Shown here in pieces: positions 175-64,000 of a DNA stretch of 64,000 bases (position 1 is its first letter; each line of letters opens with the position of its first letter). The stretch lies in assembly GCA_028715115.1 (NCBI GenBank), contig JAQUSN010000002.1:132944-196943 (forward strand), in the 5' to 3' direction. The notes under the pieces were generated by a model that ran no database searches, was not told the DNA's origin, and worked only from the letters and a program-made list of their open reading frames with translations. The DNA is from Patescibacteria group bacterium. GTDB lineage: Bacteria > Patescibacteriota > Patescibacteriia > UBA2591 > UBA4787. A program made the translations under genes and the position numbers.

Positions 175-295
175 GCCAATGGCAATCTGTGCGTGCGCTA
201 CCTCTATTGGAATGGCAGCAGGTGGAGCTGGAACTACAACTGGCTTGACAACAACTTCAACGACAACAATCCGGCGCTGCTTCGCAACTCACTTC
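175..295 (+). repeat. DGR template repeat (TR) candidate. AAC/AAT-codon-rich tract: tgg aac tac aac tgg ctt gac aac aac ttc aac gac aac aat ccg gcg ctg ctt cgc.
   Basis: A run of AAC/AAT codons in one frame is the adenine-rich signature of DGR template repeats. It translates to the W-N-x-N style of C-type-lectin-fold variable regions. It is locally GC-rich relative to the genome. No ORF enters it from upstream; the frame is open from nt 103 but has no Met or start context. It lies directly beside the Avd-like and RT genes. Confidence 0.6.
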
Positions 296-704
296 ATTTC
301 TTCTCCCGATTCAGCTCGGGAGAAGTTTCTTTTAATAAATTACGGTGCCAACCGCCAAGCATTTTACCAATTTCATTAAGCGGTTCAGAGATAGCCAGAT
401 ATTTTTTGTTATCCAGCGACTTGATTAGCCAGGCAATTTGGAGAAAAAATTTTAGCAAGTCAAATCGGCTGACTGCTTTTTGCACATAAGGCAATTTCTT
501 GTCTTTGGGTAAATTTCCGGCGGTAAAAATTAACTCGATTACTTCGACGAATGTCGAATCAATTTTTGCACCCAAAGTAAAGCGTGATGTTTTGGGCAAG
601 TGTTGAACAATTTCGTGCCATAATTTGTAAGTTCCGATTAATCTATCTATGATTGGAAGGGTATTTAAAGCGGGGGGGGGGCAATTAAAGGAAGAATTTT
701 TCAT
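294..704 (-). CDS. avd: Avd-like four-helix-bundle accessory protein (DGR accessory variability determinant / 23S-rRNA-IVS four-helix-bundle family).
   Basis: From about residue 15 the product is all-helical. Its pattern (K.W..h...P....LG..I...V..A....K..Y...A..S...L...L.IA...K.L....Y..I...L.EIGKML.GW) matches the four-helix-bundle/Avd family. It is adjacent and divergent to the RT. The N-terminal 15 residues and the ATG at 704 are uncertain. Confidence 0.6.
   Translation of the reverse strand: MKNSSFNCPPPALNTLPIIDRLIGTYKLWHEIVQHLPKTSRFTLGAKIDSTFVEVIELIFTAGNLPKDKKLPYVQKAVSRFDLLKFFLQIAWLIKSLDNKKYLAISEPLNEIGKMLGGWHRNLLKETSPELNREKK
301..326 (+). promoter_or_regulatory. Perfect 9-bp stem-loop (cttctcccg / cgggagaag, 8-nt loop) immediately 3' of the AAC-rich repeat.
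   Basis: Seen directly in the sequence. GC-rich hairpins abutting DGR repeats are known to act in cDNA priming and homing. Whether this marks a TR or a VR end cannot be decided from sequence alone. Confidence 0.45.
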
Positions 705-1707
705 AAAAATTAAGTTAGATATTAAATTTAGTCAAATTACCGATTTAGAGAATTTACTCGAAGCCTGGCGAGAGTTTTTAAAGGGTAAAAAGAAAAAACC
801 TGATGTTGCGCTGTTTCAAAGGAATTTAATAGACAATATTTTTTCTTTACGCGACGATTTAATTAGCCGTACCTACAGGCACGGCGCTTATCAAGCTTTT
901 AATATTTCTGATCCTAAGCCAAGAAATATTCATAAAGCCACGGTGCGCGACAGGGTTTTACACCGTGCTATCTATCGTCAGCTTTATTCATTTTTTGATC
1001 GAATCTTTATCGCCAGTTCGTTTTCTTGTCGTCTTGGCAAAGGAACGCATCGAGGGCTTAAATATTTTCAATCCAATGGTTATAAAGTGAGTAAAAATAA
1101 TACCAGAACCGCTTGGATCTTAAAATGCGATATTAAGAAATTTTTCGCTAGCGTTGACCATAAAGCCTTGCTTAAAATTTTAGCCCAATATATTACCGAT
1201 CAAGATGTTTTATGGTTGCTCAAAGAGACTGTTGGCAGTTTTGAGAACAAGCCAAAAATAGGATTGCCGTTAGGCAATTTAACTTCGCAACTTTTTGCCA
1301 ACGTTTATCTTAACGAATTTGACCAATTTGTAAAACATAACCTAAAAGTTAAATATTATCTGCGCTATGCTGACGATTTTGTTTTACTCTCTGAAGATAA
1401 AAACTGGCTCGAGGGTCAGATTCCTCATCTTAAAACATTTCTTTCTGAAAGGTTACGCTTAACCATGCACCCACGAAAAATTTTTCTTAAAACCCTTGCT
1501 TCGGGTGTTGATTTTCTGGGCTGGGTTAATTTTTTCCACCATAGGGTGGTTAGGACGAGCACTAAAAAGAAGCTAACCAAGAGAATTAAAGCAAATCCGA
1601 CCAAAGAAACCATTGCTTCATATTTGGGATTATTGAGCCACGGGAATACATATAAATTAAAAAAGAAAATTAGACTGGCGGATAAATTCAAAAAAGACGG
1701 TGCGTGA
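649..1707 (+). CDS. DGR-type reverse transcriptase.
   Basis: RT motifs are present: YADDFVL (motif 5) and LPLGNLTSQLFANVYLNEFD (motif 4, with the SQ signature that, as far as I recall, marks DGR RTs). The N-terminus (NLLEAWREFLKGKKKK) is typical. At about 350 aa it has no maturase or endonuclease domain. A TR-like repeat and an Avd-like gene are adjacent. Confidence 0.8.
   Translation: MIGRVFKAGGGQLKEEFFIKIKLDIKFSQITDLENLLEAWREFLKGKKKKPDVALFQRNLIDNIFSLRDDLISRTYRHGAYQAFNISDPKPRNIHKATVRDRVLHRAIYRQLYSFFDRIFIASSFSCRLGKGTHRGLKYFQSNGYKVSKNNTRTAWILKCDIKKFFASVDHKALLKILAQYITDQDVLWLLKETVGSFENKPKIGLPLGNLTSQLFANVYLNEFDQFVKHNLKVKYYLRYADDFVLLSEDKNWLEGQIPHLKTFLSERLRLTMHPRKIFLKTLASGVDFLGWVNFFHHRVVRTSTKKKLTKRIKANPTKETIASYLGLLSHGNTYKLKKKIRLADKFKKDGA
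672..681. repeat. G10 homopolymer inside the overlapping 5' coding ends of the RT (reads KAGGGQ) and the Avd-like gene (reads CPPPA).
   Basis: Ten consecutive G in an AT-rich genome. It sits in codons 8-11 of both divergent overlapping ORFs. Confidence 0.9.
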
Positions 1708-12039: not shown

Positions 12040-12064
12040 CCGGCGCGGAACTAGTCCGCGCCGG
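12040..12064 (-). terminator. Intrinsic terminator for the minus-strand GC-rich operon (ccggcgcgga / tccgcgccgg). The stop codon sits in its loop and a T-rich run follows on the minus strand.
   Basis: Perfect 10-bp GC stem. Confidence 0.6.
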
Positions 12065-12269
12065 GAGATGGTTCTTGCTGCTGGAAGAGTGCCTTGTTCG
12101 GCATGCCGTCGGTTATGACTACGAGAACAGAGATGAGGGCACTGCCTATCTGCCACAGGATGAGTCTGATCACGAAAGGGCCCGGCATCATACAGAGCCC
12201 GATAGTGAGTCCAAGCCAGGCGCCTATGATAGACCAGAATATCACGTCTCTTGTCCCTAGATCCCTCAT
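12051..12269 (-). CDS. GC-rich small 2-TM membrane protein (72 aa), second gene of a two-gene GC-rich operon.
   Basis: Its ATG overlaps the upstream stop (ATGA). It has two hydrophobic helices and is visibly GC-rich in an AT-rich genome. Confidence 0.5.
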   Translation of the reverse strand: MRDLGTRDVIFWSIIGAWLGLTIGLCMMPGPFVIRLILWQIGSALISVLVVITDGMPNKALFQQQEPSPGAD

Positions 12270-12490
12270 GACGTCCCCGTAGGGCGGGCGTCAAGAGGCG
12301 TTTTTTCCGTAGCGATTTCGTACAAGAAAACCAGGATCAGGCTGATCACTAACCAGGCGCTGGTCAGTAACGGGACGCCCAGGCCGATGCACAGAACCTT
12401 CCATAGGTTCAGCATGTCGAAGTGGCAGATCCAGATGACGTACTTGATGCACGTCACGAACCAGACGATGAAACACACTAGAGAAATCAC
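12266..12490 (-). CDS. GC-rich small 2-TM membrane protein (74 aa; weak resemblance to PLD_N/YxlE-type small membrane proteins).
   Basis: GTG start with AAGGAGG 5 nt upstream. A promoter-like TTGACA ... TATAAT element lies upstream on the minus strand. GC-rich. Confidence 0.5.
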   Translation of the reverse strand: MISLVCFIVWFVTCIKYVIWICHFDMLNLWKVLCIGLGVPLLTSAWLVISLILVFLYEIATEKTPLDARPTGTS

Positions 12491-23049: not shown

Positions 23050-23427
23050 GTGGACGAAGCCCTGATCGGATTGATTATCCCCAAGTCTCCTTGGGCTATG
23101 GCCAAGGAGGCGAATACGCTGGGTGCGCTGATAACCATACTGCGCACTTACTACTTCTTCATGGTGGGCGTGCGCGACTGGAGACAGGTCGCAAACAACA
23201 TCAACGAGACATCGGTGCAGATTGTGGAAGAAACATCCAGCTGCGTAAGAGCAGAGGTTGATTTCACGGTTATGACCGATGCAGGTCTCTTCATCGGCGC
23301 GATGGCCGTGCACGTCAAGGCGCTCAATGCAACTTTGGCCGACAGCAGAATGACACAGCTGTCGACCTGGCTACAAAGAGCGATCGGCAACAGTACGTTC
23401 GTTCAGGTGATCCTGAGGACGAGATAG
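23050..23427 (+). CDS. GC-rich hypothetical protein (125 aa).
   Basis: GTG start with AAAGGAG 5 nt upstream. Consensus promoter and downstream terminator. Visibly GC-rich. No motif recognised. Confidence 0.5.
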   Translation: MDEALIGLIIPKSPWAMAKEANTLGALITILRTYYFFMVGVRDWRQVANNINETSVQIVEETSSCVRAEVDFTVMTDAGLFIGAMAVHVKALNATLADSRMTQLSTWLQRAIGNSTFVQVILRTR

Positions 23428-23496: not shown

Positions 23497-23727
23497 TTGA
23501 CGCAAATAAATAAGCAGAATATAATAAAAGAGATGGGGACTGGCACCACGCCTCAACTGCTGGGCCTTTAATGCCTCATCGAACGCATAAACTGGAGGTT
23601 ATCTATGCTGAGACGGCTTCTGAAGGACGAGAGCGGATAGTCGAGACGACGAAGAAGCGGAGCTCGCATAACGCGAGCTCGCACTCCCGGGGCGCACTGC
23701 GCTCTGGGAGTTTTTTTATGGAGTGGA
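23497..23727 (+). other. GC-rich mini transcription unit: exact TTGACG, 17 nt, TATAAT promoter (23497-23525); SD GGAGG; 11-codon ORF MLRRLLKDESG (23605-23640); strong 12-bp terminator plus T7 (23694-23727).
   Basis: All elements seen in the sequence. Possible small RNA or leader peptide. Confidence 0.35.
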
Positions 23728-23767
23728 TAACTTTAATTTACAAATTTTATTTATAAAATATAATAAA

Positions 23768-23985
23768 AAAAGACAAAGACAGAATCATTGTGTAAGTACA
23801 CCGGGTCTACGGATCCGGTGGGCATACCCAGGGAGGTATGAGATTGGTTTGGTAAGCTGAATGCCCGGCTAGCCCTTGTTCCGAATTCTTAGGAGCCCGG
23901 AGCCGAGGTACGCCAGGGAGAGCAGCGCCAGCCCCGGGGATGCAGATTGAGCTTCAGCTCTCTGCTCCCCGGGTATTATTTTTTT
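23768..23985 (+). ncRNA. Candidate GC-rich structured RNA of about 220 nt ending in an intrinsic terminator (cccgggga / tccccggg, then T7). Identity unknown.
   Basis: Non-coding and roughly 60% GC by eye. A promoter-like TTTACA ... TATAAT element lies upstream. The strong terminator at 23933-23985 is immediately before the rplJ promoter. Confidence 0.3.
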
Positions 23986-24008: not shown

Positions 24009-24204
24009 TTGACACTTAATTATTTTTGATTATACTAATTATATCTTAACCGTAGACAGTGTGGCCTTCGACGAATCGTCGGAGTTAATACACCAGCCCA
24101 CCGAGGTCAAAAGACATTTTATTGTCTGCGGTTATCCGCAGATTATTTATTATTACGAATTACATATTTTTAGATTTAATTTTTGGTTTTTAATTTTACT
24201 TTAT
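24009..24204 (+). promoter_or_regulatory. rplJ promoter (TTGACA, 16 nt, TATACT) and structured L10 leader with hairpins cgacgaatcgtcg and ctgcggttatccgcag.
   Basis: Promoter hexamers and several stem-loops in the 170-nt 5' UTR. Consistent with autoregulatory L10 leaders. Confidence 0.5.
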
Positions 24205-25167: not shown

Positions 25168-25370
25168 AGACCTCAGCCCTTTGTTGCTAGCGCTCGCTCG
25201 GAAAAGAAAAAATAAATTTTTTCTTTCTCTCTCGCTTGCTTAGCAATAGCACTGATCAGCAATCATTAGAGAATCCACCAAACTCGTGGAGTGGGCATAG
25301 TTCCCACAAATGGCCCGAGTTGGTGGATTTCTTATTATAGCTCTTTGTATCTGATACATTAGAGCTATAA

Positions 25371-25404
25371 TAACCCTAAGCGAGCTTGCGAGCGCAGGGT
25401 AACC
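25371..25404 (+). repeat. 34-bp repeat unit taaccctaagcgagcttgcgagcgcagggtaacc (copy 1).
   Basis: Direct repeat shared with 25504-25537. Degenerate copies are at 25547-25577 and 25586-25610. Confidence 0.7.
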
Positions 25405-25503
25405 TTTAAACACTCTCAACTTTAGTTGGGAGCATGACTTGTGATTAGAAACAAAAAACCCCTGAGGAGGCTATGCGACGTAGGGTAACTTAAAGAAAAT
25501 AAA

Positions 25504-25537
25504 TAACCCTAAGCGAGTCCTCGAGCGCAGGGTTACC
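25504..25537 (+). repeat. 34-bp repeat unit taaccctaagcgagtcctcgagcgcagggttacc (copy 2).
   Basis: About 30 of 34 positions identical to copy 1. Confidence 0.7.
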
Positions 25538-25621
25538 ATAATACTTTATTGAGTGAGTCTGCGAGCGCAGAGTAACCTTAATGCCTTATTGAGCGAGTCG
25601 CAGGGCAGCCATTTGAACATA

Positions 25622-33006: not shown

Positions 33007-33870
33007 ATGAATAATTTAAATCAAAATTTATATTCTCGTTTCGGACGGACAATTGATCTTGATAAAGTCCAGAATGGTTTTAAATTATGCGTTAAGAATG
33101 CGGCGCTTGAATATATAACGCCACTTTCCTATCTTAATGAAACAGATGAATTAATAGACATAAAAAATCAGACACTTAAAGAATTATGCCGACAAATGTT
33201 CGCAGATCAGGACAAATACAACAGCGTTTACGGACTCGAGTATTTTATAAAATCTCAACTTTATGACAGCATGGATCCTTTTCAAGAATCTCTTTTAAAA
33301 TTACAAATATTTTTGAATATTATTTTCCGTAATAATTCTAATAAATTATTACTCCATGAATTTAATCAATTTATTATAGAATTAGAAAAATATATTAGCG
33401 ACTTTCCAATTTTAGGAATAATGATTAAAAAATATAAATTAAAATCACCGCAGATTTTGCCCACTACCTCAAAAATATTCAAACAAAATATAAAAAATAC
33501 CTTAGGACTTTTAGAATTAAATGATAAATATAAGCATATACTTTCTTCTTTTGAAGATGGTTTAAAAGAATTTTTATCTGCCAAAACAATAGAAAAGTAT
33601 AAAAATGTTGTTGAAGACATGTATTCGGCTCTTGATGAGTTAGCAAAAGTTATATTTGATGATAAAAATAAGGGCTTTAAACATTTATTAAATAAAGAAA
33701 ATATAAAGTTATTCAGTTGTGGTTTTCAAAAAGAAATATATAACAATCTTCGTAAATGGATGGATCTTATTAAACATGGAACAAAAAAGGATCTTAATAA
33801 AAATGATATTGAGATAATCATTGATATGACGGGCAATTTAATTAGATTTATGATTTTAAAAATAAAATAA
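33007..33870 (+). CDS. Hypothetical all-alpha protein (accessory island gene 1).
   Basis: ORF in an extra-AT-rich block. No confident motif. Confidence 0.5.
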   Translation: MNNLNQNLYSRFGRTIDLDKVQNGFKLCVKNAALEYITPLSYLNETDELIDIKNQTLKELCRQMFADQDKYNSVYGLEYFIKSQLYDSMDPFQESLLKLQIFLNIIFRNNSNKLLLHEFNQFIIELEKYISDFPILGIMIKKYKLKSPQILPTTSKIFKQNIKNTLGLLELNDKYKHILSSFEDGLKEFLSAKTIEKYKNVVEDMYSALDELAKVIFDDKNKGFKHLLNKENIKLFSCGFQKEIYNNLRKWMDLIKHGTKKDLNKNDIEIIIDMTGNLIRFMILKIK

Positions 33871-33921
33871 TATTTAAATTTTATACCTAAAAAACATATT
33901 TAAATAATATAAAAAAGATTT

Positions 33922-35058
33922 ATGATAATTTCGGAACTAAAGGAAATATTTGGTTGGTCAACAGAAAGAGATGATTTTATTATCGGAAAAGATAGTTTTT
34001 CAGACCTGCAAATAAATTCGACACCATTTGAGCAATTTTATTATTTTTTTCATCAAAAAGACAGAAGACTAATAAAGCAATTTGTTCTTAACAAGGGTAA
34101 GCGAGTAGACCATATATGCAGAGTGGATCTTATAAAAAAAGATAGTAAATTTGCACCCCGATTATCATTTTCCATCCGCGATAAAGCAAGAAAAATAACA
34201 GAGCAAGAGGAGGCAGAAAAAACTAATATAAAAGCTAACGTTAGTTTATGTGATTGTTCTAATAATTTTTGGAAATTGATTTCTTTTCTTAAAACATTGC
34301 AGGACATAGAAATTCCAGAAGACAAATTCTCTCTTGTGTCTCAAAAAGAAGAAGAAATTGTATCTGCCCTGCATAATCGAGGATCAGGTAGTGTTTTAAA
34401 TATTATTAAACAACTTTCACAATCACCAGATATTTCCTTAACACAAGAAGATGTTAATTCTCTCTTAAAGAGAAGAGAGAAATTAATTAATTTCGAAGAG
34501 GCTCTAAAAAAATATCAAAGTGATGAAGGATGGTGGCAAAATTTTTTTGAACAAAATAAATGGATTTTTGGTTATGGTTTAAACTATGAAATTCTGAAGA
34601 ACCAACAATCACAGCCACATTATGGAGGCGATAAAGTTGATGGATCTGGCGGTCAGCGGGGCGACAACCTTATGTCTACAACTGGCGATTTAAATTTTAC
34701 AGTTTTGGTTGAGATAAAAACTCCAGCCACCAAGCTTTTACAGGGAGTGCAAGAAATTAGAAATGGTGCGTGGAGCTTGTCTAAAGATCTAACCGATGCT
34801 TTGTCTCAAATACTAGCGAACATTCAAACATGGGATAAATGTGGATCAGAGCAACCAGCGAATAGGGATAAACTCGAGAAAGATTCAGTTTTTACTATTA
34901 AACCAAAGGGCATTATTGTTATTGGCGCGCTGGGTCAGCTTGATGATAGAAATAAAAGAGAAACATTTCAACGTTTTAGAAAATCGGTTCACGGAATCGA
35001 TATTATTACTTTTGACGAATTATTTGAAAGAGCTCAATTTATTGTTCAAAGTGATTAG
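33922..35058 (+). CDS. Hypothetical protein with a C-terminal PD-(D/E)xK-like motif (GDLNFTVLVEIK); possibly DUF4263/Shedu-like.
   Basis: D...E.K arrangement in the C-terminal third, and the size. Assignment by eye only. Confidence 0.4.
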   Translation: MIISELKEIFGWSTERDDFIIGKDSFSDLQINSTPFEQFYYFFHQKDRRLIKQFVLNKGKRVDHICRVDLIKKDSKFAPRLSFSIRDKARKITEQEEAEKTNIKANVSLCDCSNNFWKLISFLKTLQDIEIPEDKFSLVSQKEEEIVSALHNRGSGSVLNIIKQLSQSPDISLTQEDVNSLLKRREKLINFEEALKKYQSDEGWWQNFFEQNKWIFGYGLNYEILKNQQSQPHYGGDKVDGSGGQRGDNLMSTTGDLNFTVLVEIKTPATKLLQGVQEIRNGAWSLSKDLTDALSQILANIQTWDKCGSEQPANRDKLEKDSVFTIKPKGIIVIGALGQLDDRNKRETFQRFRKSVHGIDIITFDELFERAQFIVQSD

Positions 35059-35066
35059 GGTTTTAA

Positions 35067-35627
35067 ATGTCATATTTAATGAAAAAATTAGGAGAAATAA
35101 AAATTGCGTGGTTGGTACTGTGGACTTGTTCTGGTCAAAACGAAGATGAATGTTTAAGAAAAGTAGGTATTTATGAAAAAGTTGCGGATATAATTAGTGC
35201 GAGGAAAGATTTTGACCAAATTATTGAAATTGCAAAAGATATTTATAAGCAAAAGATGCTCTCATTTTCAAAGAGGATTTATCTTTCTAATTATTCACTG
35301 GGGAATAAACGTAAGAAAGAATTTTTTAGCACAGAAGTTCCGGTTTTTACGCACTATCAATCTGATGTTTATAGAACTTTAATGAAATTAATTCAAGAAA
35401 AAGGGATTAAAAATAAAAAAGCAGAAAAGATGTCTGAAAGATGGAGTAGACATCCTCAATTCATAACGGTCGGACATAATCCATGCCTCGAAATAACTAA
35501 AGTGTTCAATTTATCTGTTTCTGAAGATAAAAATGGTGAGGAATTTTTAGAATGGGATCGTCTATTAGCAAGTGGTAATTTTAAGAGAGAAGAATATAGG
35601 CGCAAAAAAATAAATTATGGCCAATAA
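35067..35627 (+). CDS. Hypothetical protein (accessory island gene 3).
   Basis: ORF only. Confidence 0.4.
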   Translation: MSYLMKKLGEIKIAWLVLWTCSGQNEDECLRKVGIYEKVADIISARKDFDQIIEIAKDIYKQKMLSFSKRIYLSNYSLGNKRKKEFFSTEVPVFTHYQSDVYRTLMKLIQEKGIKNKKAEKMSERWSRHPQFITVGHNPCLEITKVFNLSVSEDKNGEEFLEWDRLLASGNFKREEYRRKKINYGQ

Positions 35628-36246
35628 ATATTTAAAGAGAAAGATTAGAAATTATGAAATATATAAAACAATGCTTATATCTATTTTGATGTGTTTGTCT
35701 TTTTTTACTGGCGAATATGTTTATTCTAAAAAATTTTTTGGTGATATTATAGTAAACATTATAGTGGGGCTGGTTCTTGGTATCATTGGTGCAATTTTGA
35801 CTATTATTTTTGAGAATTACATGATTAGTCAGGCTCGTTATAGAAAAGGGCTTGAATTGGAATCACAGGTAGAAGATAAATTAAAAAGACTAAGAATTAA
35901 ATATGAACCCCACCTAGAAGATGGTCACGGTGATTTGGATTTTTTACTTAGTGGAAATAATAATTTTTATGGGATAGAAGTTAAAAATCAATCAGGCCTT
36001 ATAAGATTTGAAAATAATAATCTTATGATTTCTAATTTTAAGAATACCTATATTTTAAAGAACTTATTAAAACACTGTAAACTAATTAGAGATATAAAAT
36101 TTGGAGATAGTTCAGATAGATTCATTAAACCCATACTCATTTTTGGTTATAAAGCTGTTGTTGATATCCCACAAAATAAGATCAAGTTCAATAATGTAGA
36201 AATTATAGTTGCCACTATTAATGATTTTGAGCGCTATATTATTTAG
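35617..36246 (+). CDS. Membrane-anchored NERD-domain (nuclease-related) protein.
   Basis: N-terminal TM helices. GDLDFLLSGNNNFYGIEVKNQSG matches the NERD / PD-(D/E)xK core (D..D.LL.G....Y.IE.KN.SG). Confidence 0.5.
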   Translation: MANKYLKRKIRNYEIYKTMLISILMCLSFFTGEYVYSKKFFGDIIVNIIVGLVLGIIGAILTIIFENYMISQARYRKGLELESQVEDKLKRLRIKYEPHLEDGHGDLDFLLSGNNNFYGIEVKNQSGLIRFENNNLMISNFKNTYILKNLLKHCKLIRDIKFGDSSDRFIKPILIFGYKAVVDIPQNKIKFNNVEIIVATINDFERYII

Positions 36247-36267
36247 TTGTTATTAAAATTCGGCAGC

Positions 36268-36300
36268 GATTTTGCGTCCGCCTCCGCCCGTATTCTCAAT
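36268..36300 (+). repeat. 33-bp GC-rich direct repeat, left copy: gattttgcgtccgcctccgcccgtattctcaat.
   Basis: Matches 36881-36915 at about 28 of 33 positions. The core is CCGCCTCCGCCCG. Confidence 0.7.
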
Positions 36301-36336
36301 ACTCTGACTTTGAATAAATTAAAATAAATAAATAAA

Positions 36337-36882
36337 ATGATAAAAATAAAACGGGGAAGACAATTATCTAAAGAATTTATAAAGCAATGGAACACCGCTG
36401 TTGACAGAGAATTTGAATGTAATGAGTTTTTAGATCCACAAAAAAGAAATAGTTTTTCAAAAGATATTTTTTTCATACTTACTGAAAAGAAAAAGATAAA
36501 ATCAATAGCAAGAATAAAGGAATATTCTGTTATTTTTGAAGAAAAACGATATAAAGTCTTGGGCATTACGGATATGGTTTCTTTAAAAAAGGGTCATGGT
36601 TATGGGATAAAATTAGTTAAATCCATGATTAGATATATTAAAAAAACTAAAAAAACGGAAATAAGTTTCTGTCATCCAAAAAATACTAATTTTTATAAAA
36701 AAGGCGGATTTATAATTATAAAAAATGCAGTTAAACAGTTTTATTACAAAGATAAATCAGGTAAGGTTATAAAAAATAATTGGGATAAAGATCTCCTTTG
36801 TATAAATGGAACAGATAATCTAATAAATAAAATTAAATCTTATCCCAAACAAAAGATACAAATGTCAACCAAATTTTTCTGA
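36337..36882 (+). CDS. GNAT-family N-acetyltransferase.
   Basis: Motif A-like KKGHGYGIKLVKSMIRY. Confidence 0.55.
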   Translation: MIKIKRGRQLSKEFIKQWNTAVDREFECNEFLDPQKRNSFSKDIFFILTEKKKIKSIARIKEYSVIFEEKRYKVLGITDMVSLKKGHGYGIKLVKSMIRYIKKTKKTEISFCHPKNTNFYKKGGFIIIKNAVKQFYYKDKSGKVIKNNWDKDLLCINGTDNLINKIKSYPKQKIQMSTKFF

Positions 36883-36915
36883 TTTTGCCGCCGCCTCCGC
36901 CCGCATCTTAACCCT
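36881..36915 (+). repeat. 33-bp GC-rich direct repeat, right copy: gattttgccgccgcctccgcccgcatcttaacc.
   Basis: See the left copy. It starts at the GNAT stop codon. Confidence 0.7.
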
Positions 36916-36943
36916 CCTCACTAAACCAACTTTAAATTAGTTT

Positions 36944-37450
36944 ATGCTATTCAATATTTTATTTACCGTTATTGTTGGCTCGTTGCTCCATTTTACTTTT
37001 AATTTTGCCCACCAGGCCAAGATCGTCGGTTTGTTTTCGGCGGTCAACGAAAGTAGTTGGGAGCATTTGAAACTGGCAGTCATGCCCATGGCGCTCATTG
37101 CTTTATGGTGGGCGATTAACGGTAAGCGGAGGCCGAATAATTTTTGGCTATCGCGGGCCGTGGCCATGTATCTAGCGCCGATTTTAATCTTATTGATTTT
37201 TTACGATTACACAGCTATTTTAGGTAAGAATTATTTGCCTTTAGACATCAGCACGTTTATCCTGGCCGTTATTCTTGCTGAATTAGTCGCCAGATGGATT
37301 ACCAAAAAGCCAGAATTTTCCCGGCGCTATAATCCAATTTTTCAAGCCGCCATCATCCTTCTCGTAGCCATTTTCATAGTCTTTACCTTTTATCCGCCGC
37401 AAAATATTCTTTTCCTTGACCCCATCACCCTCACCTATGGTCTAAAATAA
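36944..37450 (+). CDS. Hypothetical polytopic membrane protein.
   Basis: Four to five hydrophobic helices. Confidence 0.5.
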   Translation: MLFNILFTVIVGSLLHFTFNFAHQAKIVGLFSAVNESSWEHLKLAVMPMALIALWWAINGKRRPNNFWLSRAVAMYLAPILILLIFYDYTAILGKNYLPLDISTFILAVILAELVARWITKKPEFSRRYNPIFQAAIILLVAIFIVFTFYPPQNILFLDPITLTYGLK

Positions 37451-44853: not shown

Positions 44854-44877
44854 GAACGATATACTTATATAAGAAGC

Positions 44878-44905
44878 AAAAACGAACCGAATTGGTTCGT
44901 TTTTA
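44878..44905 (+). terminator. Intrinsic terminator (aacgaacc / ggttcgtt, then a T-run).
   Basis: Perfect 8-bp stem followed by ttttt. Confidence 0.65.
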
Positions 44906-44964
44906 TATAAGCAAACCCCCCGACCAAACGTCGAGGGGGTGCACGTAAGTGCATTGAACCTCCT

Positions 44965-45174
44965 TTAGCTCTGAAATGTTATCTTGCGCCAGGTTATCCT
45001 GACGAGCGTGACCGGTATCAGAACGGCTATCGTGGCATAGAACCGGAGTCGTTTGAGCGCCTTGTCCATCCATTCGGCAATTACCACCATCAGCCAGATG
45101 ATGAGCTTGCCCAGTTCAGCAGACTCAGCGCTCGACGGTCCGTAGGGATCGGTGGGCGAGAAGTCGTTGTTCAT
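44965..45174 (-). CDS. GC-rich small 2-TM membrane protein (69 aa).
   Basis: ATG with AGGAG 5 nt upstream. It is driven from a palindromic divergent promoter. A GC-rich hairpin terminator lies downstream (44907-44940). GC-rich. Confidence 0.5.
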   Translation of the reverse strand: MNNDFSPTDPYGPSSAESAELGKLIIWLMVVIAEWMDKALKRLRFYATIAVLIPVTLVRITWRKITFQS

Positions 45175-45192
45175 AATAACTCCTATATAATA

Positions 45193-45251
45193 AATATAGC
45201 ATATTTTTTACACTTAGTCAATATTGACAAAAACTAAAAATATGCTATATT
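45193..45251. promoter_or_regulatory. Nested palindrome forming symmetric divergent promoters. The outer 16-bp inverted repeat (aatatagcatattttt / aaaaatatgctatatt) supplies a TATATT -10 on both strands. The central palindrome gtcaatattgac supplies TTGACA (+) and TTGACT (-).
   Basis: Seen directly in the sequence. Spacings are 16 nt (+) and 17 nt (-). Confidence 0.6.
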
Positions 45252-45276
45252 AAAAATAACCTTAAAGGAGGTTCGT

Positions 45277-45654
45277 ATGTTCGAACGTGCAGATTCCGGA
45301 AGCGGTCATCGTTTCCCCGAACCGCCCGAGCCGGCAGAAAACTTCCGCTGGTTCATGGAAGCCAGCCATGCCCACCGCGTCCTACCGATCCGCGTAGTCG
45401 GTGGCCCCCTGAAGTCCCTTAACGGTGACGGGCTCTTGAGCCTTGAGTTCGCTCTGGCCCGCAGAAGCGGCCGCCGGAATGAGCCCATGGTCGCCGAGAT
45501 CCACGTCCTCAGTCACGAGCAGGTTACCGACAGCATGATGTCGGTAATCGGTCCGGTAGTCGCCGTTGACGGTTTGCGAACCGAGTCGCACCGGTCGGCG
45601 ACAATCACCTTCGATCACATCAAGCAGACGGGAACGTTGCGGTTTCTGCAGTAG
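45277..45654 (+). CDS. GC-rich hypothetical soluble protein (125 aa).
   Basis: AAAGGAGG 7 nt before the ATG. A perfect terminator lies downstream. One 60-nt stretch of the ORF counted by hand was 37/60 GC. Confidence 0.55.
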   Translation: MFERADSGSGHRFPEPPEPAENFRWFMEASHAHRVLPIRVVGGPLKSLNGDGLLSLEFALARRSGRRNEPMVAEIHVLSHEQVTDSMMSVIGPVVAVDGLRTESHRSATITFDHIKQTGTLRFLQ

Positions 45655-45669
45655 AGTTCCCGAGCACCC

Positions 45670-45702
45670 GAGCGCCGAGGTCCTCTCGGCGCTCTTCTTT
45701 TT
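45670..45702 (+). terminator. Intrinsic terminator (gagcgccgag / ctcggcgctc, loop gtcct, then a T-run).
   Basis: Perfect 10-bp stem. Confidence 0.7.
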
Positions 45703-45726
45703 ATATATTTTAAAACAAAAAGAGAA

Positions 45727-45754
45727 GGCGAGCCGCAAAGAACTGCGGCTCGCC
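45727..45754 (-). terminator. Perfect 10-bp hairpin (ggcgagccgc / gcggctcgcc) with a T-rich run on the minus-strand side. Candidate terminator of a minus-strand transcript from the 45.76-46.1 kb structured region.
   Basis: Seen directly in the sequence. Confidence 0.4.
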
Positions 45755-45757
45755 ATG

Positions 45758-45960
45758 TAACGGGAGGGCGGACCTGCCCACAAACGGTCGACTTGACTTT
45801 GCTCCCCTTGCCCAAGTCAGTGGTCGACTGTCCGCCTCCTGGCGTACCCCGTGAAGTACATCGATTCAGTCAATCCTGGCACATATTTCCGTCACAGGAC
45901 TCGCAGTAGAGTGACAGAAAAGCGCGGGTCCTTCGTTCACCACGCCCCAAAGGAGGTTAT
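45758..45960. other. GC-rich structured noncoding segment. It holds a long imperfect hairpin (gggagggcggac ... gtccgcctcc enclosing gtcgacttgactt / aagtcagtggtcgac) and further stem-loops. Candidate sRNA or cis element.
   Basis: No ORF has start signals. It contains an orphan AAAGGAGG with no start codon in range. Several long complementary segments. Confidence 0.3.
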
Positions 45961-46213
45961 ACGATATAGGGACAGGATTTAACCGATGTACGGAAGGAAA
46001 CCCATTTAAGGGAAAAGGGACGCCAATAACACCTCCGATTGTGATATAATAGCAGAAAGGTAAAATTTTGTCAAGTCCCAAAGTGGCATTATAAGGTGGT
46101 TTTATTAACATTTAGTCAGAGCTAAACTTGATGATTTGCACATTAATGCTTCCAATTATTTAGTAAAATGGTATTATATATATTATTAGTTTAATCATTA
46201 AAAACATATAATT

Positions 46214-46762: not shown

Positions 46763-47044
46763 TCAGGTTGTGGGCTTGGGGGCGGGGACCACGTGGGCCC
46801 AGAAGTTGCAGCCCAGAGGGTCGCCGATCATGAGTGCATCACCGCGCCCCGGCTTCTTCTCGGAGATCACGAGAAAGCCTGTTCCGTTGGGCGGAGGGGA
46901 GACCCACCTCTGGTTCGTCGGATCGAAGCCGACCATTGCCTCGGAATAGGCCGGGCTTATCTCGTGGGGTTGAGAGGGGATGACGGTGCCGTCAGCGGGG
47001 AAGACAACCGTTCCGCTTACCGGCGTAGTTGCGCCTTCGGTCAC
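46763..47044 (-). CDS. GC-rich hypothetical protein (93 aa).
   Basis: GTG start with AAGGAGG 5 nt upstream. A TTGACA, 16 nt, TATATT promoter on the minus strand. GC-rich. Confidence 0.55.
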   Translation of the reverse strand: MTEGATTPVSGTVVFPADGTVIPSQPHEISPAYSEAMVGFDPTNQRWVSPPPNGTGFLVISEKKPGRGDALMIGDPLGCNFWAHVVPAPKPTT

Positions 47045-47093
47045 GAATACCTCCTTAGGGTAATGAATGTAGGGGACTTACTCGAACATTTAT

Positions 47094-47172
47094 AATATAC
47101 AACTTTTATACATTTTGTCAAGATTACAGGTGAATTTTATTAACTTGACTTTTGACTAAAATCGTTTATAAT
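47094..47172. promoter_or_regulatory. AT-rich divergent promoter region. Minus strand: TTGACA (47116-47121) and TATATT (47094-47099). Plus strand: TTGACT (47145-47150), 16 nt, TATAAT (47167-47172).
   Basis: Seen directly in the sequence. Confidence 0.55.
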
Positions 47173-47197
47173 ATAAAACAACAGGAGGAATTACCGA

Positions 47198-47629
47198 ATG
47201 AAGTCATTGCTAACCGCAATCGTGATCGTGGTGGTAATAATCCTCCCGTCACGACTGGCGGCACAACCCGTTTCCCCGTGGTCCAAGGTCTGTCTGGAGA
47301 GCTCGTCCGACGAATGGAGCAGGTGCGAAAGATACACGCGCCTGATTGATTCGTCAGGATCATGGATTGTCATCAAGAGGACGCTTTCTCGCGATGGGAT
47401 ACTGGTTCTCGACGTTTCCTACCAGGCGAGTACCGACAGTATCAAGTGGGCATGTTATGATGTCTGTGATGATACGGTCAGCGGCACTGGTGACATTGAA
47501 GCGATCCTCGGCGACATCTACGACTACTGGCAGGATGGCGTCTTCGCAGACCTACCGATCGTGGTTCGTGGAGGGGTGTGGTCAATGATCGCCCCCTTCA
47601 AGCTATCGGAGGGCGAGCTTAGTGAGTAG
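47198..47629 (+). CDS. GC-rich secreted protein (143 aa; signal peptide, 4 Cys).
   Basis: AGGAGG 8 nt before the ATG. N-terminal signal peptide (MKSLLTAIVIVVVIILPSRLAAQP). GC-rich. Terminator at 47634-47667. Confidence 0.55.
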   Translation: MKSLLTAIVIVVVIILPSRLAAQPVSPWSKVCLESSSDEWSRCERYTRLIDSSGSWIVIKRTLSRDGILVLDVSYQASTDSIKWACYDVCDDTVSGTGDIEAILGDIYDYWQDGVFADLPIVVRGGVWSMIAPFKLSEGELSE

Positions 47630-50037: not shown

Positions 50038-50052
50038 ATTATTTATAAGAAA

Positions 50053-50074
50053 GCCGCCCCGGTTAAGGGGCGGC
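50053..50074. terminator. Bidirectional terminator (gccgcccc / ggggcggc). It overlaps the 3' coding end of the minus-strand Cys-rich gene.
   Basis: Perfect 8-bp GC stem between convergent genes. Confidence 0.6.
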
Positions 50075-50302
50075 AGTAAACATGGACGGGGATTGACCTC
50101 TGTGGCGGACCCGTGTCCGGGTTTGTCTGGGCCGAACGAGCGGGGAGATGGGGCAGGCGATCATCTTCTCTTGATAGTATCTTGAGCAAGTAGCGCAGCA
50201 GGACTTAAGACATTTGTTGGTCTTGGGGCATCCTTTTGCCAGGTTACATCCTTCGCAGCATGGATGTAGTTTGCCACCACAGCCAGCAGGGTTACTGTCC
50301 AT
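50063..50302 (-). CDS. GC-rich Cys-rich small protein (79 aa from the SD-preceded Met; 11 Cys in CC/CxxC patterns, metallothionein-like N-terminus, basic tail).
   Basis: GGAGG 7 nt upstream of the ATG at 50302. The ORF-track ATG at 50326 has no SD. A TTGACA lies at about 50356-50361 on the minus strand. GC-rich. The last 8 codons are encoded by the terminator hairpin. Confidence 0.45.
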   Translation of the reverse strand: MDSNPAGCGGKLHPCCEGCNLAKGCPKTNKCLKSCCATCSRYYQEKMIACPISPLVRPRQTRTRVRHRGQSPSMFTAAP

Positions 50303-50812
50303 AGGAGAGCCTCCATAGTTTGGCATATCTATAGCTTAATACTATTTTAGAGGTTTGTCAATTATTTATTTATATATTTATTTTACGACACTTGATAATT
50401 TAATTATCTTTTTTTGTTTATTTTAATAATCAGATTTTTAATAAAAGAGGCTTAAGTTTTATTAAAATCATTGTTAAAAAGGGGAAACATGGACTAAACC
50501 GATAAAATCGAGCATATCTGATAAATAACTGAACTTAGATACATATCCTTGATCTATTACCTATGTGCCCTACAATTTTAAAAAATTTTTATAATAAAGT
50601 TGAGATAGATATCAAGAATAGAGCAGTGAAAAACAAAAAATATTTTTTTAATAAAATAGATGGAGTATATATCATCTTTTAAGGTTAAAAAACAAACAAA
50701 ATAGGCCTTTTATTAGAAGACCTATTTTGTTGAAGATCCTGACTTGGCTTCGTAAAAGGTATATTGTGCGACGCTGTATATCTAGAAAAACCTTATATCC
50801 CCTTTAATATAT

Positions 50813-61748: not shown

Positions 61749-63251
61749 TTATTTAATTTTGTAAATCCAAATCTTTTTCAAGGCCTCTTTAGCCGCACTT
61801 AAATGTAAAATACTGCTAGTGTAAAGAGTAAACAATACATCGCCAGTCTTAACCGGTTCCTTGATCATTTTATGAAAATATATTCCGGCGGTTTTTGTAC
61901 CCGGAGCGCCAAGCAATCGGCAGATTTCAACTAGATTTTTATTATGCACCTCGGTTATTCTGCCGGTTTTATGCGCGATAATATCAAGTTTTATCTTGCC
62001 TTGTTTTATTTGTTCAGAATCCAGAGGCTTACCGCCTTGAATAGTGATAATTTGTTTCATTTTTTTCCAAGCATTGCCATTAATTAAGGCTTTGCGCGAA
62101 AAATAAGAACCCAACCCTTTCTTGACCTTGCCGGTTAATTCTAATAATTTGCCTGCTAATAAAATAGACTTTTCTTCTAGGTCAATCGGCCGATTCTCTT
62201 TTTGTTGTAAAACGCGTAAGACGTCTCTGGCTTCAAGTGTCGGACCAATACCCTTGCCAATCGGGCCTTTAACCGATTTACTGATAATAATTTTTATTTT
62301 AATATTAAATTTTTTAGCTAAAAATAGGAATAAGTTAGCAATTTTGCGAGCATCTTTCATATTTGTTACTTTGGCGGTCGGTCCGACCGGAATATCTAAG
62401 ATTAAATGAGTAACTCCTTCGCCCACCTTCTTCGCAATAATTGAAACAATCATTTTATTATATAATTCAATCCCGAGCTTATAGACAATGCTTAAAATTC
62501 GATCATCGGCTGGCGCAATGTCTTCGGCGCCCCAAACCAAGAAAGCGTTTGCTTTTTTAATAAACTTTTGTAAATCTTTGGCGCCGAAAGTTACGGGTGC
62601 TAAAACTTCGAACGTATCAGCAGTGCCAGCCGCCGAAGTAACGGCCCTGGTTGATGTTTTGGGAATAATAATGCCGTAGCTGGCGATTATTGCCACGATA
62701 ATTGGTGTAACTCGATTCCCAGGAATACCGCCAATAGAATGTTTATCGACGACAATATTGCCAAATCGAAAAATTTTTCCGGTATAAGCGATGGCTTTTG
62801 CTAAATAGAATAATTCTCGCCGAGATAAACAAGTGCTCTTTGAAAAAGCGCCGGCGACAAAAAAGGCCATTTCAGCATCATCTAATTTATATTCTACTAC
62901 GTCGTTAATAATCGAATAAATTTCTTTATAAGATAATTTTTTGCCCAATATCTTTTTTTGGATAGCCTTTATAGATTCTGAATGAGTTGATAGGGTGAGT
63001 TGAATTAATTTATTATTTTCAAATCGGCACTTATTAATAATATCTTCAAATAATCCAATTTGACCCGGCTTAACCATGCTGTCGGTAATATCGACAATAA
63101 CCTCTCTAGTGTGTTTGCCCCAGCGCAATAATAACTGATCGCCGGCCCTTAGGCCATTTCTTTGCGCATCGGCATTATTAATAATCACCACCCAAGGACT
63201 GCCTGTTTCGATATCTAGTTTTTTGACGCGAAGGAAAAAGAAATTTTTCAT
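61749..63251 (-). CDS. AMP phosphorylase (thymidine-phosphorylase family with N-terminal extension).
   Basis: Glycosyltransferase family 3 core (HSIGGIPGNRVTPIIVAIIAS ... TSAAGTADTFE). About 500 aa with the AMPpase-type N-domain. Adjacent to RuBisCO. Confidence 0.8.
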   Translation of the reverse strand: MKNFFFLRVKKLDIETGSPWVVIINNADAQRNGLRAGDQLLLRWGKHTREVIVDITDSMVKPGQIGLFEDIINKCRFENNKLIQLTLSTHSESIKAIQKKILGKKLSYKEIYSIINDVVEYKLDDAEMAFFVAGAFSKSTCLSRRELFYLAKAIAYTGKIFRFGNIVVDKHSIGGIPGNRVTPIIVAIIASYGIIIPKTSTRAVTSAAGTADTFEVLAPVTFGAKDLQKFIKKANAFLVWGAEDIAPADDRILSIVYKLGIELYNKMIVSIIAKKVGEGVTHLILDIPVGPTAKVTNMKDARKIANLFLFLAKKFNIKIKIIISKSVKGPIGKGIGPTLEARDVLRVLQQKENRPIDLEEKSILLAGKLLELTGKVKKGLGSYFSRKALINGNAWKKMKQIITIQGGKPLDSEQIKQGKIKLDIIAHKTGRITEVHNKNLVEICRLLGAPGTKTAGIYFHKMIKEPVKTGDVLFTLYTSSILHLSAAKEALKKIWIYKIK

Positions 63252-63259
63252 AATATTAT

Positions 63260-64000
63260 CTATAAATTACTTTTATTTTTCCAGTAATCGAGGGCGACTT
63301 TTAGTTCAGGACGGGTTTCGGCAAATTTCTCTAGCGGGATATGGCTCATGGCCGCTTCAACAGAAGCGCGAGCAGCCTTAGCGCCAGCATAAGTGCCGTC
63401 CGGATGGCCATGAATACCGCCGCCAAAATTTATAATAAGGTCTTTGCCTAATATTTTCATCAATCGAGGCGTTAAAGCCGGATGCAATCCGCCCGAGGCG
63501 ATAGGCATAACCGGCTTAATCTTACTTAAATCTTCTTTCAAGCTATGGAAATGCCCCCAATCTTCCTTTAATAAATTATCAATATCGGTTACTTCAGACT
63601 TTTCGCCTTCCATTTTACCAACTACGGTTCCGGTGTGGAGCTGATCAATGCCGGCCAAGCGCGATAGATGGGCAATCACCGACATAGCAATGCCTTGATT
63701 TTTGCTACGAGTAAAAGTCGAATGTCCCGCTCGATGACCATGAATAATCAGCCCTAAGTTTTGCGCTCGCAACTCTTGAATCGAAGAAAAGCCGGTGCTT
63801 ACAATATCAATCATGGCACAAGTACCGCCCATTTTTTTAATATACTTAGCTCGCTTAATCATTTCACTGGTTGGAGCCGTGACATTAAAAGCACAAACCT
63901 TTTTTTCGCCGGTTTTTATTTCTGCCTTTTTTGCTAAGGCTAAAGTTAACTTTACCCGTTTAGTAAAATGATTAAAGTCTTGATCTGTTAAATTTTCATC
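63260..64000 (-). CDS. rbcL: RuBisCO large subunit, form II/III-like (3' part; the gene continues upstream beyond the window end).
   Basis: GGGIHGHPDGTYAGAKAARASVEA and HTGTVVGKMEGE motifs. The frame stays open to nt 64000. Confidence 0.85.
   Translation of the reverse strand, partial: DENLTDQDFNHFTKRVKLTLALAKKAEIKTGEKKVCAFNVTAPTSEMIKRAKYIKKMGGTCAMIDIVSTGFSSIQELRAQNLGLIIHGHRAGHSTFTRSKNQGIAMSVIAHLSRLAGIDQLHTGTVVGKMEGEKSEVTDIDNLLKEDWGHFHSLKEDLSKIKPVMPIASGGLHPALTPRLMKILGKDLIINFGGGIHGHPDGTYAGAKAARASVEAAMSHIPLEKFAETRPELKVALDYWKNKSNL

Follow-up and report, generated by a model that had tools for sequence, protein, structure and literature searches.

Within a 64,000-nucleotide (nt) stretch of contig JAQUSN010000002.1 from a Patescibacteria group bacterium (assembly GCA_028715115.1, contig positions 132,944 to 196,943; hereafter the window), two small GC-rich genes lie back to back and are read outward from a compact region between them. 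The leftward gene encodes a protein of 69 amino acids (aa) and the rightward gene a protein of 125 aa. The initial annotation had described the interval 44965-45702 of the window as a divergent GC-rich gene pair with a compact two-way promoter region, a Shine-Dalgarno (SD) sequence and a terminator on each side, and this structural reading holds. As argued below, we favour the view that the pair forms an accessory module of foreign origin in the host chromosome.

The 69-aa open reading frame (ORF) occupies 44965-45174 on the minus strand. Its SD sequence, AGGAG at 45180-45184, is positioned 5 nt ahead of the ATG and has a duplex energy of -6.8 kcal/mol. The frame shows a 3-nt periodicity (p=0.001), with GC contents of 0.71, 0.49 and 0.41 at the third, first and second codon positions (GC3, GC1 and GC2, respectively). 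The predicted product is a basic, helical small protein with an acidic N-terminus of 20 residues and two hydrophobic stretches of 13-17 residues each, which are split by the motif DKALKRLR. Its Kyte-Doolittle maxima over 19-residue windows, 1.41 and 1.57, fall just below the usual threshold of 1.6, and AlphaFold2 predicts one long helix spanning residues 15-68 with a predicted local distance difference test (pLDDT) score of 85, a shape that is uninformative for a fold search. From these features it is plausible that the protein is membrane-associated. Given the sub-threshold hydropathy and the single predicted helix, the two transmembrane segments of the earlier description are uncertain. Downstream of the gene, a first terminator-like hairpin (44916-44938, minus strand; 9 pairs, including 7 G-C, and a weak T tract) is followed by a two-way terminator hairpin at 44877-44905, which closes the upstream host SdpI-like gene on the plus strand and would act as the second terminator of the 69-aa transcript on the minus strand. 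Both minus-strand hairpins fall outside the interval first reported.

The 125-aa ORF occupies 45277-45654 on the plus strand and encodes a soluble, Arg-rich protein. Its translation start region (45263-45291) comprises the SD sequence AAAGGAGGT, which lies 5 nt before the ATG at 45277 and has a duplex energy of -12.4 kcal/mol, together with the first five codons. The frame is again periodic (p=0.0005), with GC3, GC1 and GC2 values of 0.73, 0.64 and 0.45. AlphaFold2, run without an alignment, returned a model with a pLDDT of 34 that is unusable. An intrinsic terminator of 11 pairs followed by a T run is located at 45670-45694 on the plus strand. The strong SD sequences and the terminator signals ascribed to both genes are present.

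Both ORFs are truly coding. We base this on their 3-nt periodicity, the order GC3>GC1>GC2, the SD sequence 5 nt before each start and the terminator just after each end; furthermore, each ORF fills the space between its promoter and its terminator. In a word-indexed search of 5.8 billion proteins the 69-aa and 125-aa proteins matched only themselves, and the 125-aa protein again matched nothing else when 1.84 billion cluster representatives were searched in full with phmmer. Comparison of the two proteins with Pfam, NCBIfam, PHROGs, PADLOC and PDB sequences produced no match, and there is no Rfam match at either ORF. A six-frame Pfam scan of eight GC-rich islands, aimed at donor genes in another frame or on the other strand, gave no match, nor did blastn comparisons with phage and plasmid collections or scans of IMG/VR with four proteins from the GC-rich units of the window (hereafter cassettes). 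These searches yielded no ordinary metabolic homologs for either product, and indeed no homologs at all.

Exact-protein look-ups placed both ORFs on the metagenome-assembled genomes (MAGs) GCA_028713815.1 and GCA_028686935.1 and on two more of uncultured Patescibacteria. Both are also present in the independent Logan assemblies SRR22315506, SRR22315507 and SRR22315509, while the Logan assembly SRR22315508 holds other portions of the window. Across 6 kilobases (kb) around the locus the copies are identical or one base apart, and the junctions between AT-rich host genes and GC-rich genes are seen in short independent contigs. Because these junctions and identical DNA recur in independent environmental assemblies, the locus is neither an assembly chimera nor a designed construct, and the suggestion of a designed element is excluded. 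The palindrome between the genes likewise recurs in independent assemblies. Neither its absence nor the emergence of ordinary metabolic homologs, the two outcomes named beforehand as speaking against the pair, was observed.

The surroundings are those of a bacterial chromosome. Housekeeping genes of the window include those for DNA polymerase III alpha, ThrRS, ArgRS, GluRS, L25, L10, L7/L12, FtsW, RNase J and an M23 peptidase, as well as adenosine monophosphate (AMP) salvage genes, and the direct chromosomal neighbours of the GC-rich units are genes for SdpI-like, TspO, NUDIX, RNase J, rplJ and L25 products. Among the genes called in the 64-kb window there is no integrase, transposase, recombinase, phage or mobile-element gene, and no regulator or DNA-binding gene (helix-turn-helix (HTH), ribbon-helix-helix (RHH) or similar).

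The mirrored promoter region

The 102-nt spacer between the two genes contains two nested inverted repeats. The outer one is a perfect 16-nt inverted repeat with the left arm AATATAGCATATTTTT at 45193-45208 and the right arm AAAAATATGCTATATT at 45236-45251. Each arm carries an extended -10 module (TGcTATATT plus an A tract, in the layout AAAAATA-TG-C-TATATT), the left arm that of the predicted leftward promoter on the minus strand and the right arm that of the predicted rightward promoter on the plus strand. The claim that a 16-bp inverted repeat supplies a TATATT -10 box on both strands is thereby borne out. The inner repeat is a perfect 12-nt palindrome, GTCAATATTGAC, at 45217-45228, enclosed by back-to-back -35 hexamers at 45216-45229, namely TTGACT on the minus strand (45221->45216) and TTGACA on the plus strand (45224-45229). 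Both hexamers had been noted earlier as overlapping; they are present, but adjacent, separated by 2 base pairs (bp), and do not overlap.

More specifically, the rightward promoter consists of TTGACA at 45224-45229, a 16-nt spacer and TGcTATATT ending at 45251, with 11 of 12 consensus matches. The leftward promoter consists of TTGACT at 45221->45216, a 17-nt spacer and TGcTATATT ending at 45193, with 10 of 12 matches, and the TG is present in both. The two -10 boxes are separate and lie 38 bp apart. Transcription is predicted to start at ~45186 on the minus strand and at ~45258 on the plus strand, ~72 bp apart, leaving leaders of 12 and 19 nt. In a promoter scan of the 4.5-kb region, 21 promoter-like sites were found versus 9.7+/-3.3 expected in shuffles.

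The region had been called a perfectly symmetric nested palindrome. The nested repeats are real, whereas the symmetry is not perfect: the axis of the outer repeat falls at 45222.0 and that of the inner palindrome at 45222.5, half a base pair off, and the inter-block stretches of 8 and 7 nt bear no relation to each other. The two axes follow from the unequal promoter spacers of 17 and 16 nt. When the 102-nt spacer was shuffled 20,000 times, a perfect repeat of 16 nt or longer appeared once; with the hexamers and the TG of both promoters kept in place, the count was 18 in 20,000. Divergent consensus promoters form an inverted repeat by construction (TGTCAA..TTGACA, ATTATA..TATAAT), which makes the symmetry ~20-fold less surprising than it looks. 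The 16-nt identity still exceeds chance (p ~1e-3). The 38 other promoter-like sites of the window show no conservation in the 10 nt preceding the -10 box beyond AT-richness, and the other two divergent spacers beside GC-rich genes contain repeats of 7 nt only. The nested palindrome is therefore chiefly the mirror image of two promoters. On its own, the palindromic promoter is neat, yet an ordinary outcome of placing consensus promoters back to back.

Two known arrangements invite comparison. In Tn10, the divergent genes tetR and tetA share palindromic operators through which TetR shuts both promoters. The locus shares with it a spacer of ~100 bp that is read outward, promoter elements interleaved with palindromes, and one membrane protein, here putative. 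It differs in that neither product is a TetR-type regulator or contains an HTH, the palindromes coincide with the promoter hexamers, and both proteins are orphans. The bidirectional promoters of Warman et al. 2021 are described as sharing one -10 region, with start sites 7-25 bp apart, mostly 18 (PMC10268837, PMC12825309). Pseudo-symmetric DNA, divergent transcription and a symmetry that stems from the promoter consensus are common to that class and to the region studied here. In contrast, the present region has two separate -10/-35 sets, with the 38 bp between the -10 boxes and the ~72 bp between start sites given above, and does not fall under the definition in PMC10268837.

Foreign composition and a population of GC-rich units

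The GC content of the window is 37.6%, as compared with 54% for the 69-aa ORF and 61% for the 125-aa ORF. Host genes have a GC3 of 0.353+/-0.072 with a maximum of 0.52 (n=58), whereas the pair reaches 0.71 and 0.73 and five further small ORFs of the window reach 0.66-0.76, corresponding to z values of 4-6. The amino acids shift as well. In the 125-aa protein the GARP fraction (Gly, Ala, Arg, Pro) is 0.31, the FYMINK fraction (Phe, Tyr, Met, Ile, Asn, Lys) 0.18 and the R/(R+K) ratio 0.86, against host values of 0.20, 0.35 and 0.28. That the amino-acid make-up has moved alongside the codons points to a long evolution under GC pressure, beyond synonymous drift.

The use of SD sequences sets the cassettes apart in the same manner. 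Unexpectedly, SD sequences are all but missing from the host genes: a duplex of -6 kcal/mol or stronger precedes 1 of 51 of them (1 of 36 by independent gene calls), whereas six of the seven cassette ORFs have SD energies of -6.8 to -12.4 kcal/mol; the cassette starts compared with the 51 host starts are those at 12490, 23050, 45174, 45277, 47044 and 47198. The motif AAGGAGG occurs six times in the 64 kb, which is chance level, and five of these six copies are inside GC-rich units. Many Parcubacteria, especially those lacking uL1, have been reported to be without the anti-SD motif in 16S rRNA (PMC9297842). The rplJ gene of the window has neither rplK nor rplA ahead of it. Judged by codon GC, amino acids and SD use, the genes are foreign to their Patescibacteria host, and on the same three grounds horizontal acquisition is the favoured origin.

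The pair is part of a larger set. At least seven periodic GC-rich ORFs, distributed over ~9 units with a promoter and a terminator, are found within the 64 kb. Periodicity is strong in the seven GC-rich ORFs and absent in the GC-rich units without a long ORF (p=0.1-0.8). Unit G (12.0-12.5 kb; 12051-12490, minus strand) encodes coupled membrane proteins of 74 and 72 aa, and unit E (23.0-23.5 kb; 23050-23427, plus strand) a protein of 125 aa; each has its own promoter, SD sequence and terminator. Units F1 (23.5-23.7 kb; 23497-23722) and F2 (23.74-23.99 kb; 23737-23985), both on the plus strand, contain a promoter and a terminator and no periodic ORF. They lie between an amino-acid-kinase gene and rplJ, and one of them bears an 11-codon ORF behind a good SD sequence; with fold z-scores of -4.0 and -4.6 and no Rfam match, they are candidate new small RNAs. 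The gene pair itself constitutes unit A (44.9-45.7 kb, divergent), and unit B (45.7-46.07 kb, minus strand), described below, follows directly and again has no periodic ORF.

A second divergent orphan pair, units C and D, is located at 46.7-47.65 kb (46763-47629). It consists of a soluble 93-aa protein (46763-47044, minus strand) and a 143-aa protein with a signal peptide and four Cys (47198-47629, plus strand), whose promoters are back to back at 47121->47094 and 47145-47172. The sole difference between the MAGs in the 6 kb is a non-synonymous one, D118V, in this 143-aa secreted orphan. Finally, unit H (50.0-50.35 kb; 50040-50352, minus strand), which like the second pair has a promoter, an SD sequence and a terminator of its own, holds either a Cys-rich 87-aa ORF or a 51-aa ORF, without periodicity. 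No GC-rich units occur in the ~10 kb beyond the right window edge.

To assess the density of such genes, we scanned for ORFs of at least 50 aa with a GC3 at least 0.25 above genome GC, the order GC3>GC1>GC2 and an SD of -8 kcal/mol or stronger. The scan yields five ORFs in this 64 kb versus two in 984 kb of other AT-rich loci, a ~38-fold higher density. In 859 kb of RNase J-linked relatives, most GC-rich islands correspond to tRNAs, transfer-messenger RNA (tmRNA) or portions of ordinary genes. When compared with each other, the cassettes show no paralogy, no terminal repeats and no mobile-element signature. Integron cassettes are promoterless ORFs arrayed beside an integrase, each ending in attC. 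The present units, in contrast, are scattered, have their own promoters and no common repeat, and are accompanied by no integrase in the window.

A second mirrored block and the neighbouring unit B

The translation start of the 125-aa gene has an inverted copy at the far end of the 69-aa gene. This copy (44940-44967, minus strand) consists of TAAAGGAGGTTC, an ATG and ACGTGCA, and the 69-aa ORF stops at the TAA that it contains. The 12-mer TAAAGGAGGTTC forms a perfect 12-nt inverted repeat between 44956-44967 (minus strand) and 45263-45274, where it is the SD sequence of the 125-aa gene, and the similarity runs on past it through the ATG and the in-register ACGTGCA. By chance the 12-mer alone is expected in 4.7% of cases. 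The extension has a p of ~0.003 in a register-limited shuffle, and a looser global-alignment test was not significant. The sequence AAAGGAGGTT occurs three times in the 64 kb against 0.17 expected, all at this locus, and two of these copies make up the 12-nt inverted repeat. The ATG of the left copy opens a 29-codon ORF (44865-44954), which is probably a relic since it passes through both terminators.

The 16-nt identity of the promoter repeat, together with this second mirrored block at the 69-aa stop, suggests an ancestral operon of the form 69aa-TAA/AGGAGG-ATG-125aa, which would have been made divergent by an inverted duplication or an inversion that also copied the -10 module. In addition, the position of the 69-aa stop inside an inverted 125-aa start resembles an operon junction and lends some indirect support to a functional pair. 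An 11-nt inverted repeat between 44964-44974 and 46116-46126 was judged to be at chance level. An antisense relation of the two divergent messenger RNAs (mRNAs) was also discarded: the 19-nt repeat I3 makes the RNAs similar, not complementary, and no direct repeats link the two divergent transcripts.

Unit B (45715-46074, minus strand) is a GC-rich unit resembling a small RNA (sRNA) that is convergent on the 125-aa gene. Its predicted promoter, TTGACA-17-TATTAT, spans 46074->46046 and its terminator 45754->45727, giving a predicted RNA of ~330 nt with a fold z-score of -4.0, no periodicity (p=0.48) and no Rfam match. The third copy of AAAGGAGGTT lies inside unit B, antisense to the predicted transcript. 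Over 14 bp, the segment AACCUCCUUUGGGG at 45945-45958 can pair with the 125-aa mRNA around its SD sequence; if one bulge is allowed, the predicted helix takes in the AUG and grows to 19 bp, with an energy of -25 to -28 kcal/mol. None of the other translation start regions, among 64 in the window, gives as good a helix, the next reaching 12 bp and the median being 8 bp, and it was attained in 44 of 5000 shuffles. The predicted fold leaves the pairing segment no more than average accessibility. As a lead, unit B may mask the ribosome-binding site of the 125-aa gene.

Origin and function of the pair

Taken together, we consider it somewhat more probable than its opposite (roughly 0.55) that the locus is a self-contained chromosomal accessory module, in which two foreign orphan coding genes are read outward from back-to-back promoters, and that it was acquired horizontally and sits, moron-like, among housekeeping genes. 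Such a module would transcribe the 69-aa helical, hydrophobic gene and the 125-aa soluble, Arg-rich gene outward from near-consensus sigma-70-type promoters with extended -10 boxes. Both genes would be expressed without a dedicated regulator and at similar promoter strength. With start sites this close, the upstream region of each promoter overlaps the core of the other, and the two may compete for RNA polymerase. The products would be a small membrane-associated protein and a cytosolic partner, and unit B may damp translation of the latter.

Phage morons are recognised by their own promoter and terminator, a deviant nucleotide composition, and a position within a (pro)phage where related phages have the two flanking genes side by side (PMC5567305). 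The locus resembles them as a small gene set with a predicted sigma-70-type promoter and an intrinsic terminator, a deviant GC content, a position outside the surrounding gene set and, as often in morons, orphan products. Two of the three hallmarks are thus seen here, the promoter and terminator by consensus and the composition by GC and GC3; a prophage location is not, as there are no phage genes and no PHROG match. The units further differ from morons in that their neighbours are chromosomal housekeeping genes, they are ~20 points GC-richer than the host, some are divergent pairs and some are ORF-less, and they bring SD sequences into a non-SD genome.

Several points weigh against an acquired module of this kind. 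The promoters, start sites and terminators are predicted from consensus. Very large collections, which include assemblies of the same samples, yielded neither a donor nor a homolog, so that a simple recent transfer from a sampled organism is unsupported; for the remaining cassette proteins, orphan status extends to family libraries and 90%-identity clusters. Furthermore, high GC sets in exactly at the SD sequence and ORF, and the promoters, at 22% GC, are AT-rich in the manner of host DNA, which is hard to reconcile with a transfer en bloc. The nearest TspO is 54% identical (among GTDB species representatives) and the nearest RNase J 52% (among JGI metagenomes), with no neighbour shared, and the collections contain no close relative with synteny against which an insertion between formerly adjacent genes would show. 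The operon ancestor, finally, is drawn from a 28-nt imperfect repeat with p values of ~0.05 for the 12-mer and ~0.003 for its extension.

Other explanations differ in what they make of the palindromes and of the GC-rich sequence. A possible, if unlikely, alternative is that the palindromes are operators, bound at GTCAATATTGAC and/or the AATAT-N3-ATATT arms either by the 125-aa protein or by a dimeric or tetrameric repressor whose gene lies elsewhere, so that both promoters are shut at once. The 16-nt identity does exceed what promoters need, as the 18 of 20,000 conditional shuffles indicate, and it covers positions that are not conserved in the 38 other promoter-like sites; each arm is itself a small palindrome, so that three palindromes follow one another ~23 bp apart, and the other divergent cassette spacers are without such repeats. 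An operator is nevertheless unnecessary as an explanation, because most of the palindrome arises automatically from two mirrored consensus promoters, the central part directly from the two back-to-back -35 hexamers. No DNA-binding protein was called in the window, the 125-aa protein matches no DNA-binding family, and the search for further copies of the palindrome motif that had been proposed at the outset found none in the 64 kb, an extra 20 kb of the same genome, the other loci fetched or IMG/VR viral contigs, which argues against an operator of the regulon type. It is highly improbable, on the other hand, that the GC-rich stretches are structured non-coding RNAs with accidental ORFs. GC-rich islands of AT-rich genomes usually are structured non-coding RNAs, stop codons are scarce in GC-rich sequence, the predicted fold of the 125-aa transcript is better than that of its shuffled versions (z-score -4.1), and three or four neighbouring GC-rich units show no coding signal. 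Against this stand the strong periodicity in the ORF frame of seven ORFs, including both of the pair, with GC3>GC1>GC2, the SD sequences at the right distance, ORFs that span the space from promoter to terminator, and the lack of an Rfam match.

Pairing a hydrophobic with a soluble product had suggested a toxin/immunity or addiction module, in which the 69-aa protein would be a membrane toxin or holin-like and the 125-aa protein and/or unit B the antidote, in a type I- or type II-like manner. We regard this as unsupported and doubtful. The 69-aa protein is small, basic, hydrophobic and confidently predicted to be helical, a relic operon junction connects both genes, the convergent sRNA-like unit complementary to a ribosome-binding site recalls the par/fst layout, and in the second pair of the window, too, a soluble product is found next to a membrane or secreted one. 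Neither product, however, matches a toxin, antitoxin or defence family, and the pairing statistic of unit B is modest (p ~0.01). In type I toxin-antitoxin loci (fst/RNAII of par, tisB/istR-1), the hydrophobic toxin usually has fewer than 60 aa and one transmembrane helix, and an antisense RNA is directed at the toxin mRNA. The locus shares with them a small hydrophobic protein gene with a strong promoter and a terminator, a nearby RNA complementary to a ribosome-binding site, and convergent transcripts with adjacent terminators. It departs from them in that unit B is complementary to the 125-aa mRNA, with only 5-6 bp possible on the mRNA of the hydrophobic protein, in the larger size of that protein (69 aa with a 20-residue acidic N-terminus) and in the missing family match. 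Type II systems consist of two small co-directional, usually overlapping genes in one operon, encoding a DNA-binding antitoxin and a toxin of a known fold family, whereas the genes here are divergent and do not overlap, retain only a relic operon-like junction, and give no match in Pfam, NCBIfam, PADLOC or PDB. A decidedly unlikely reading makes the 319-bp segment 44956-45274, on which both promoters and the 69-aa gene lie, an active invertible switch, a flip of which would give a 69aa-125aa operon and turn the other promoter towards the 29-codon ORF. Its perfect 12-bp inverted repeat stands exactly at the stop-codon and SD junctions, with extended similarity, and by inspection the junctions are well formed in either orientation. 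Like fimS, it is a promoter-bearing segment of ~300 bp between short, perfect inverted repeats, which measure 9 bp in fimS and 12 bp in the present case, and its size and layout recall that switch. Unlike a fimS-type switch, it contains a whole gene and a promoter that is already two-way. The assemblies, from two NCBI MAGs and three Logan runs, all show the segment in one and the same orientation, no invertase was called in the window, the 12-mer has the chance expectation of 4.7%, and the 29-codon ORF that runs through two terminators is relic-like. The resemblance of the locus to type I loci, tetR/tetA regions and fimS-type invertons is only a loose one.

The window contains several further features. 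At its left edge lies a diversity-generating retroelement (294-1707) with an Avd-like protein (294-704, minus strand) and a reverse transcriptase (649-1707, plus strand); no template/variable repeat pair was found in the first 3 kb. A ribosomal protein L10 leader at 24032-24196 (plus strand) scores 40.9 bits against an Rfam gathering score of 44 (E=7e-5), and this match places the actual start of rplJ downstream of the first in-frame GTG (24061). Downstream of rplL, at 25369-25584, a 43-nt repeat, AATAACCCTAAGCGAG...GCGCAGGGTAACC, occurs in triplicate. Every copy could form a hairpin, and identity to the first copy is 81% for the second and 65% for the third. A very AT-rich island at 33007-37000 (GC3 0.19-0.24) holds defence-type genes with Shedu SduA_C and NERD domains and is an outlier opposite to the GC-rich units. 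At 61749-63862 and in ~10 kb past the right edge, genes for an archaeal-type AMP salvage pathway are found (AMP phosphorylase, form III-like RuBisCO and ribose-1,5-bisphosphate isomerase), a set that is typical of the candidate phyla radiation (CPR).

The self-contained accessory module favoured here might be one member of a more general arrangement, although we hold this extension to be rather unlikely. In it, a dispersed pool of foreign, self-contained mini-genes and GC-rich sRNAs, each with promoter, strong SD sequence and terminator, would reside in an SD-less CPR genome whose ribosome may lack the anti-SD, and the region at 44.9-46.1 kb would be a three-part module of a membrane protein, a soluble partner and an RNA masking a ribosome-binding site, rearranged by inversion or still switchable. 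If true, these elements would amount to a chromosomal accessory-gene pool of a new kind, perhaps for host-cell interaction or for expression outside the normal translation regime. The dense orphan mini-genes of this small, episymbiont-type genome differ from their host in codon GC, amino acids and SD use, yet have host-type promoters. Should the pattern prove to be genome-wide, it would offer a handle on how CPR bacteria take up and express foreign DNA, on SD pairing by their ribosomes, and on the small proteins and RNAs of symbiosis.

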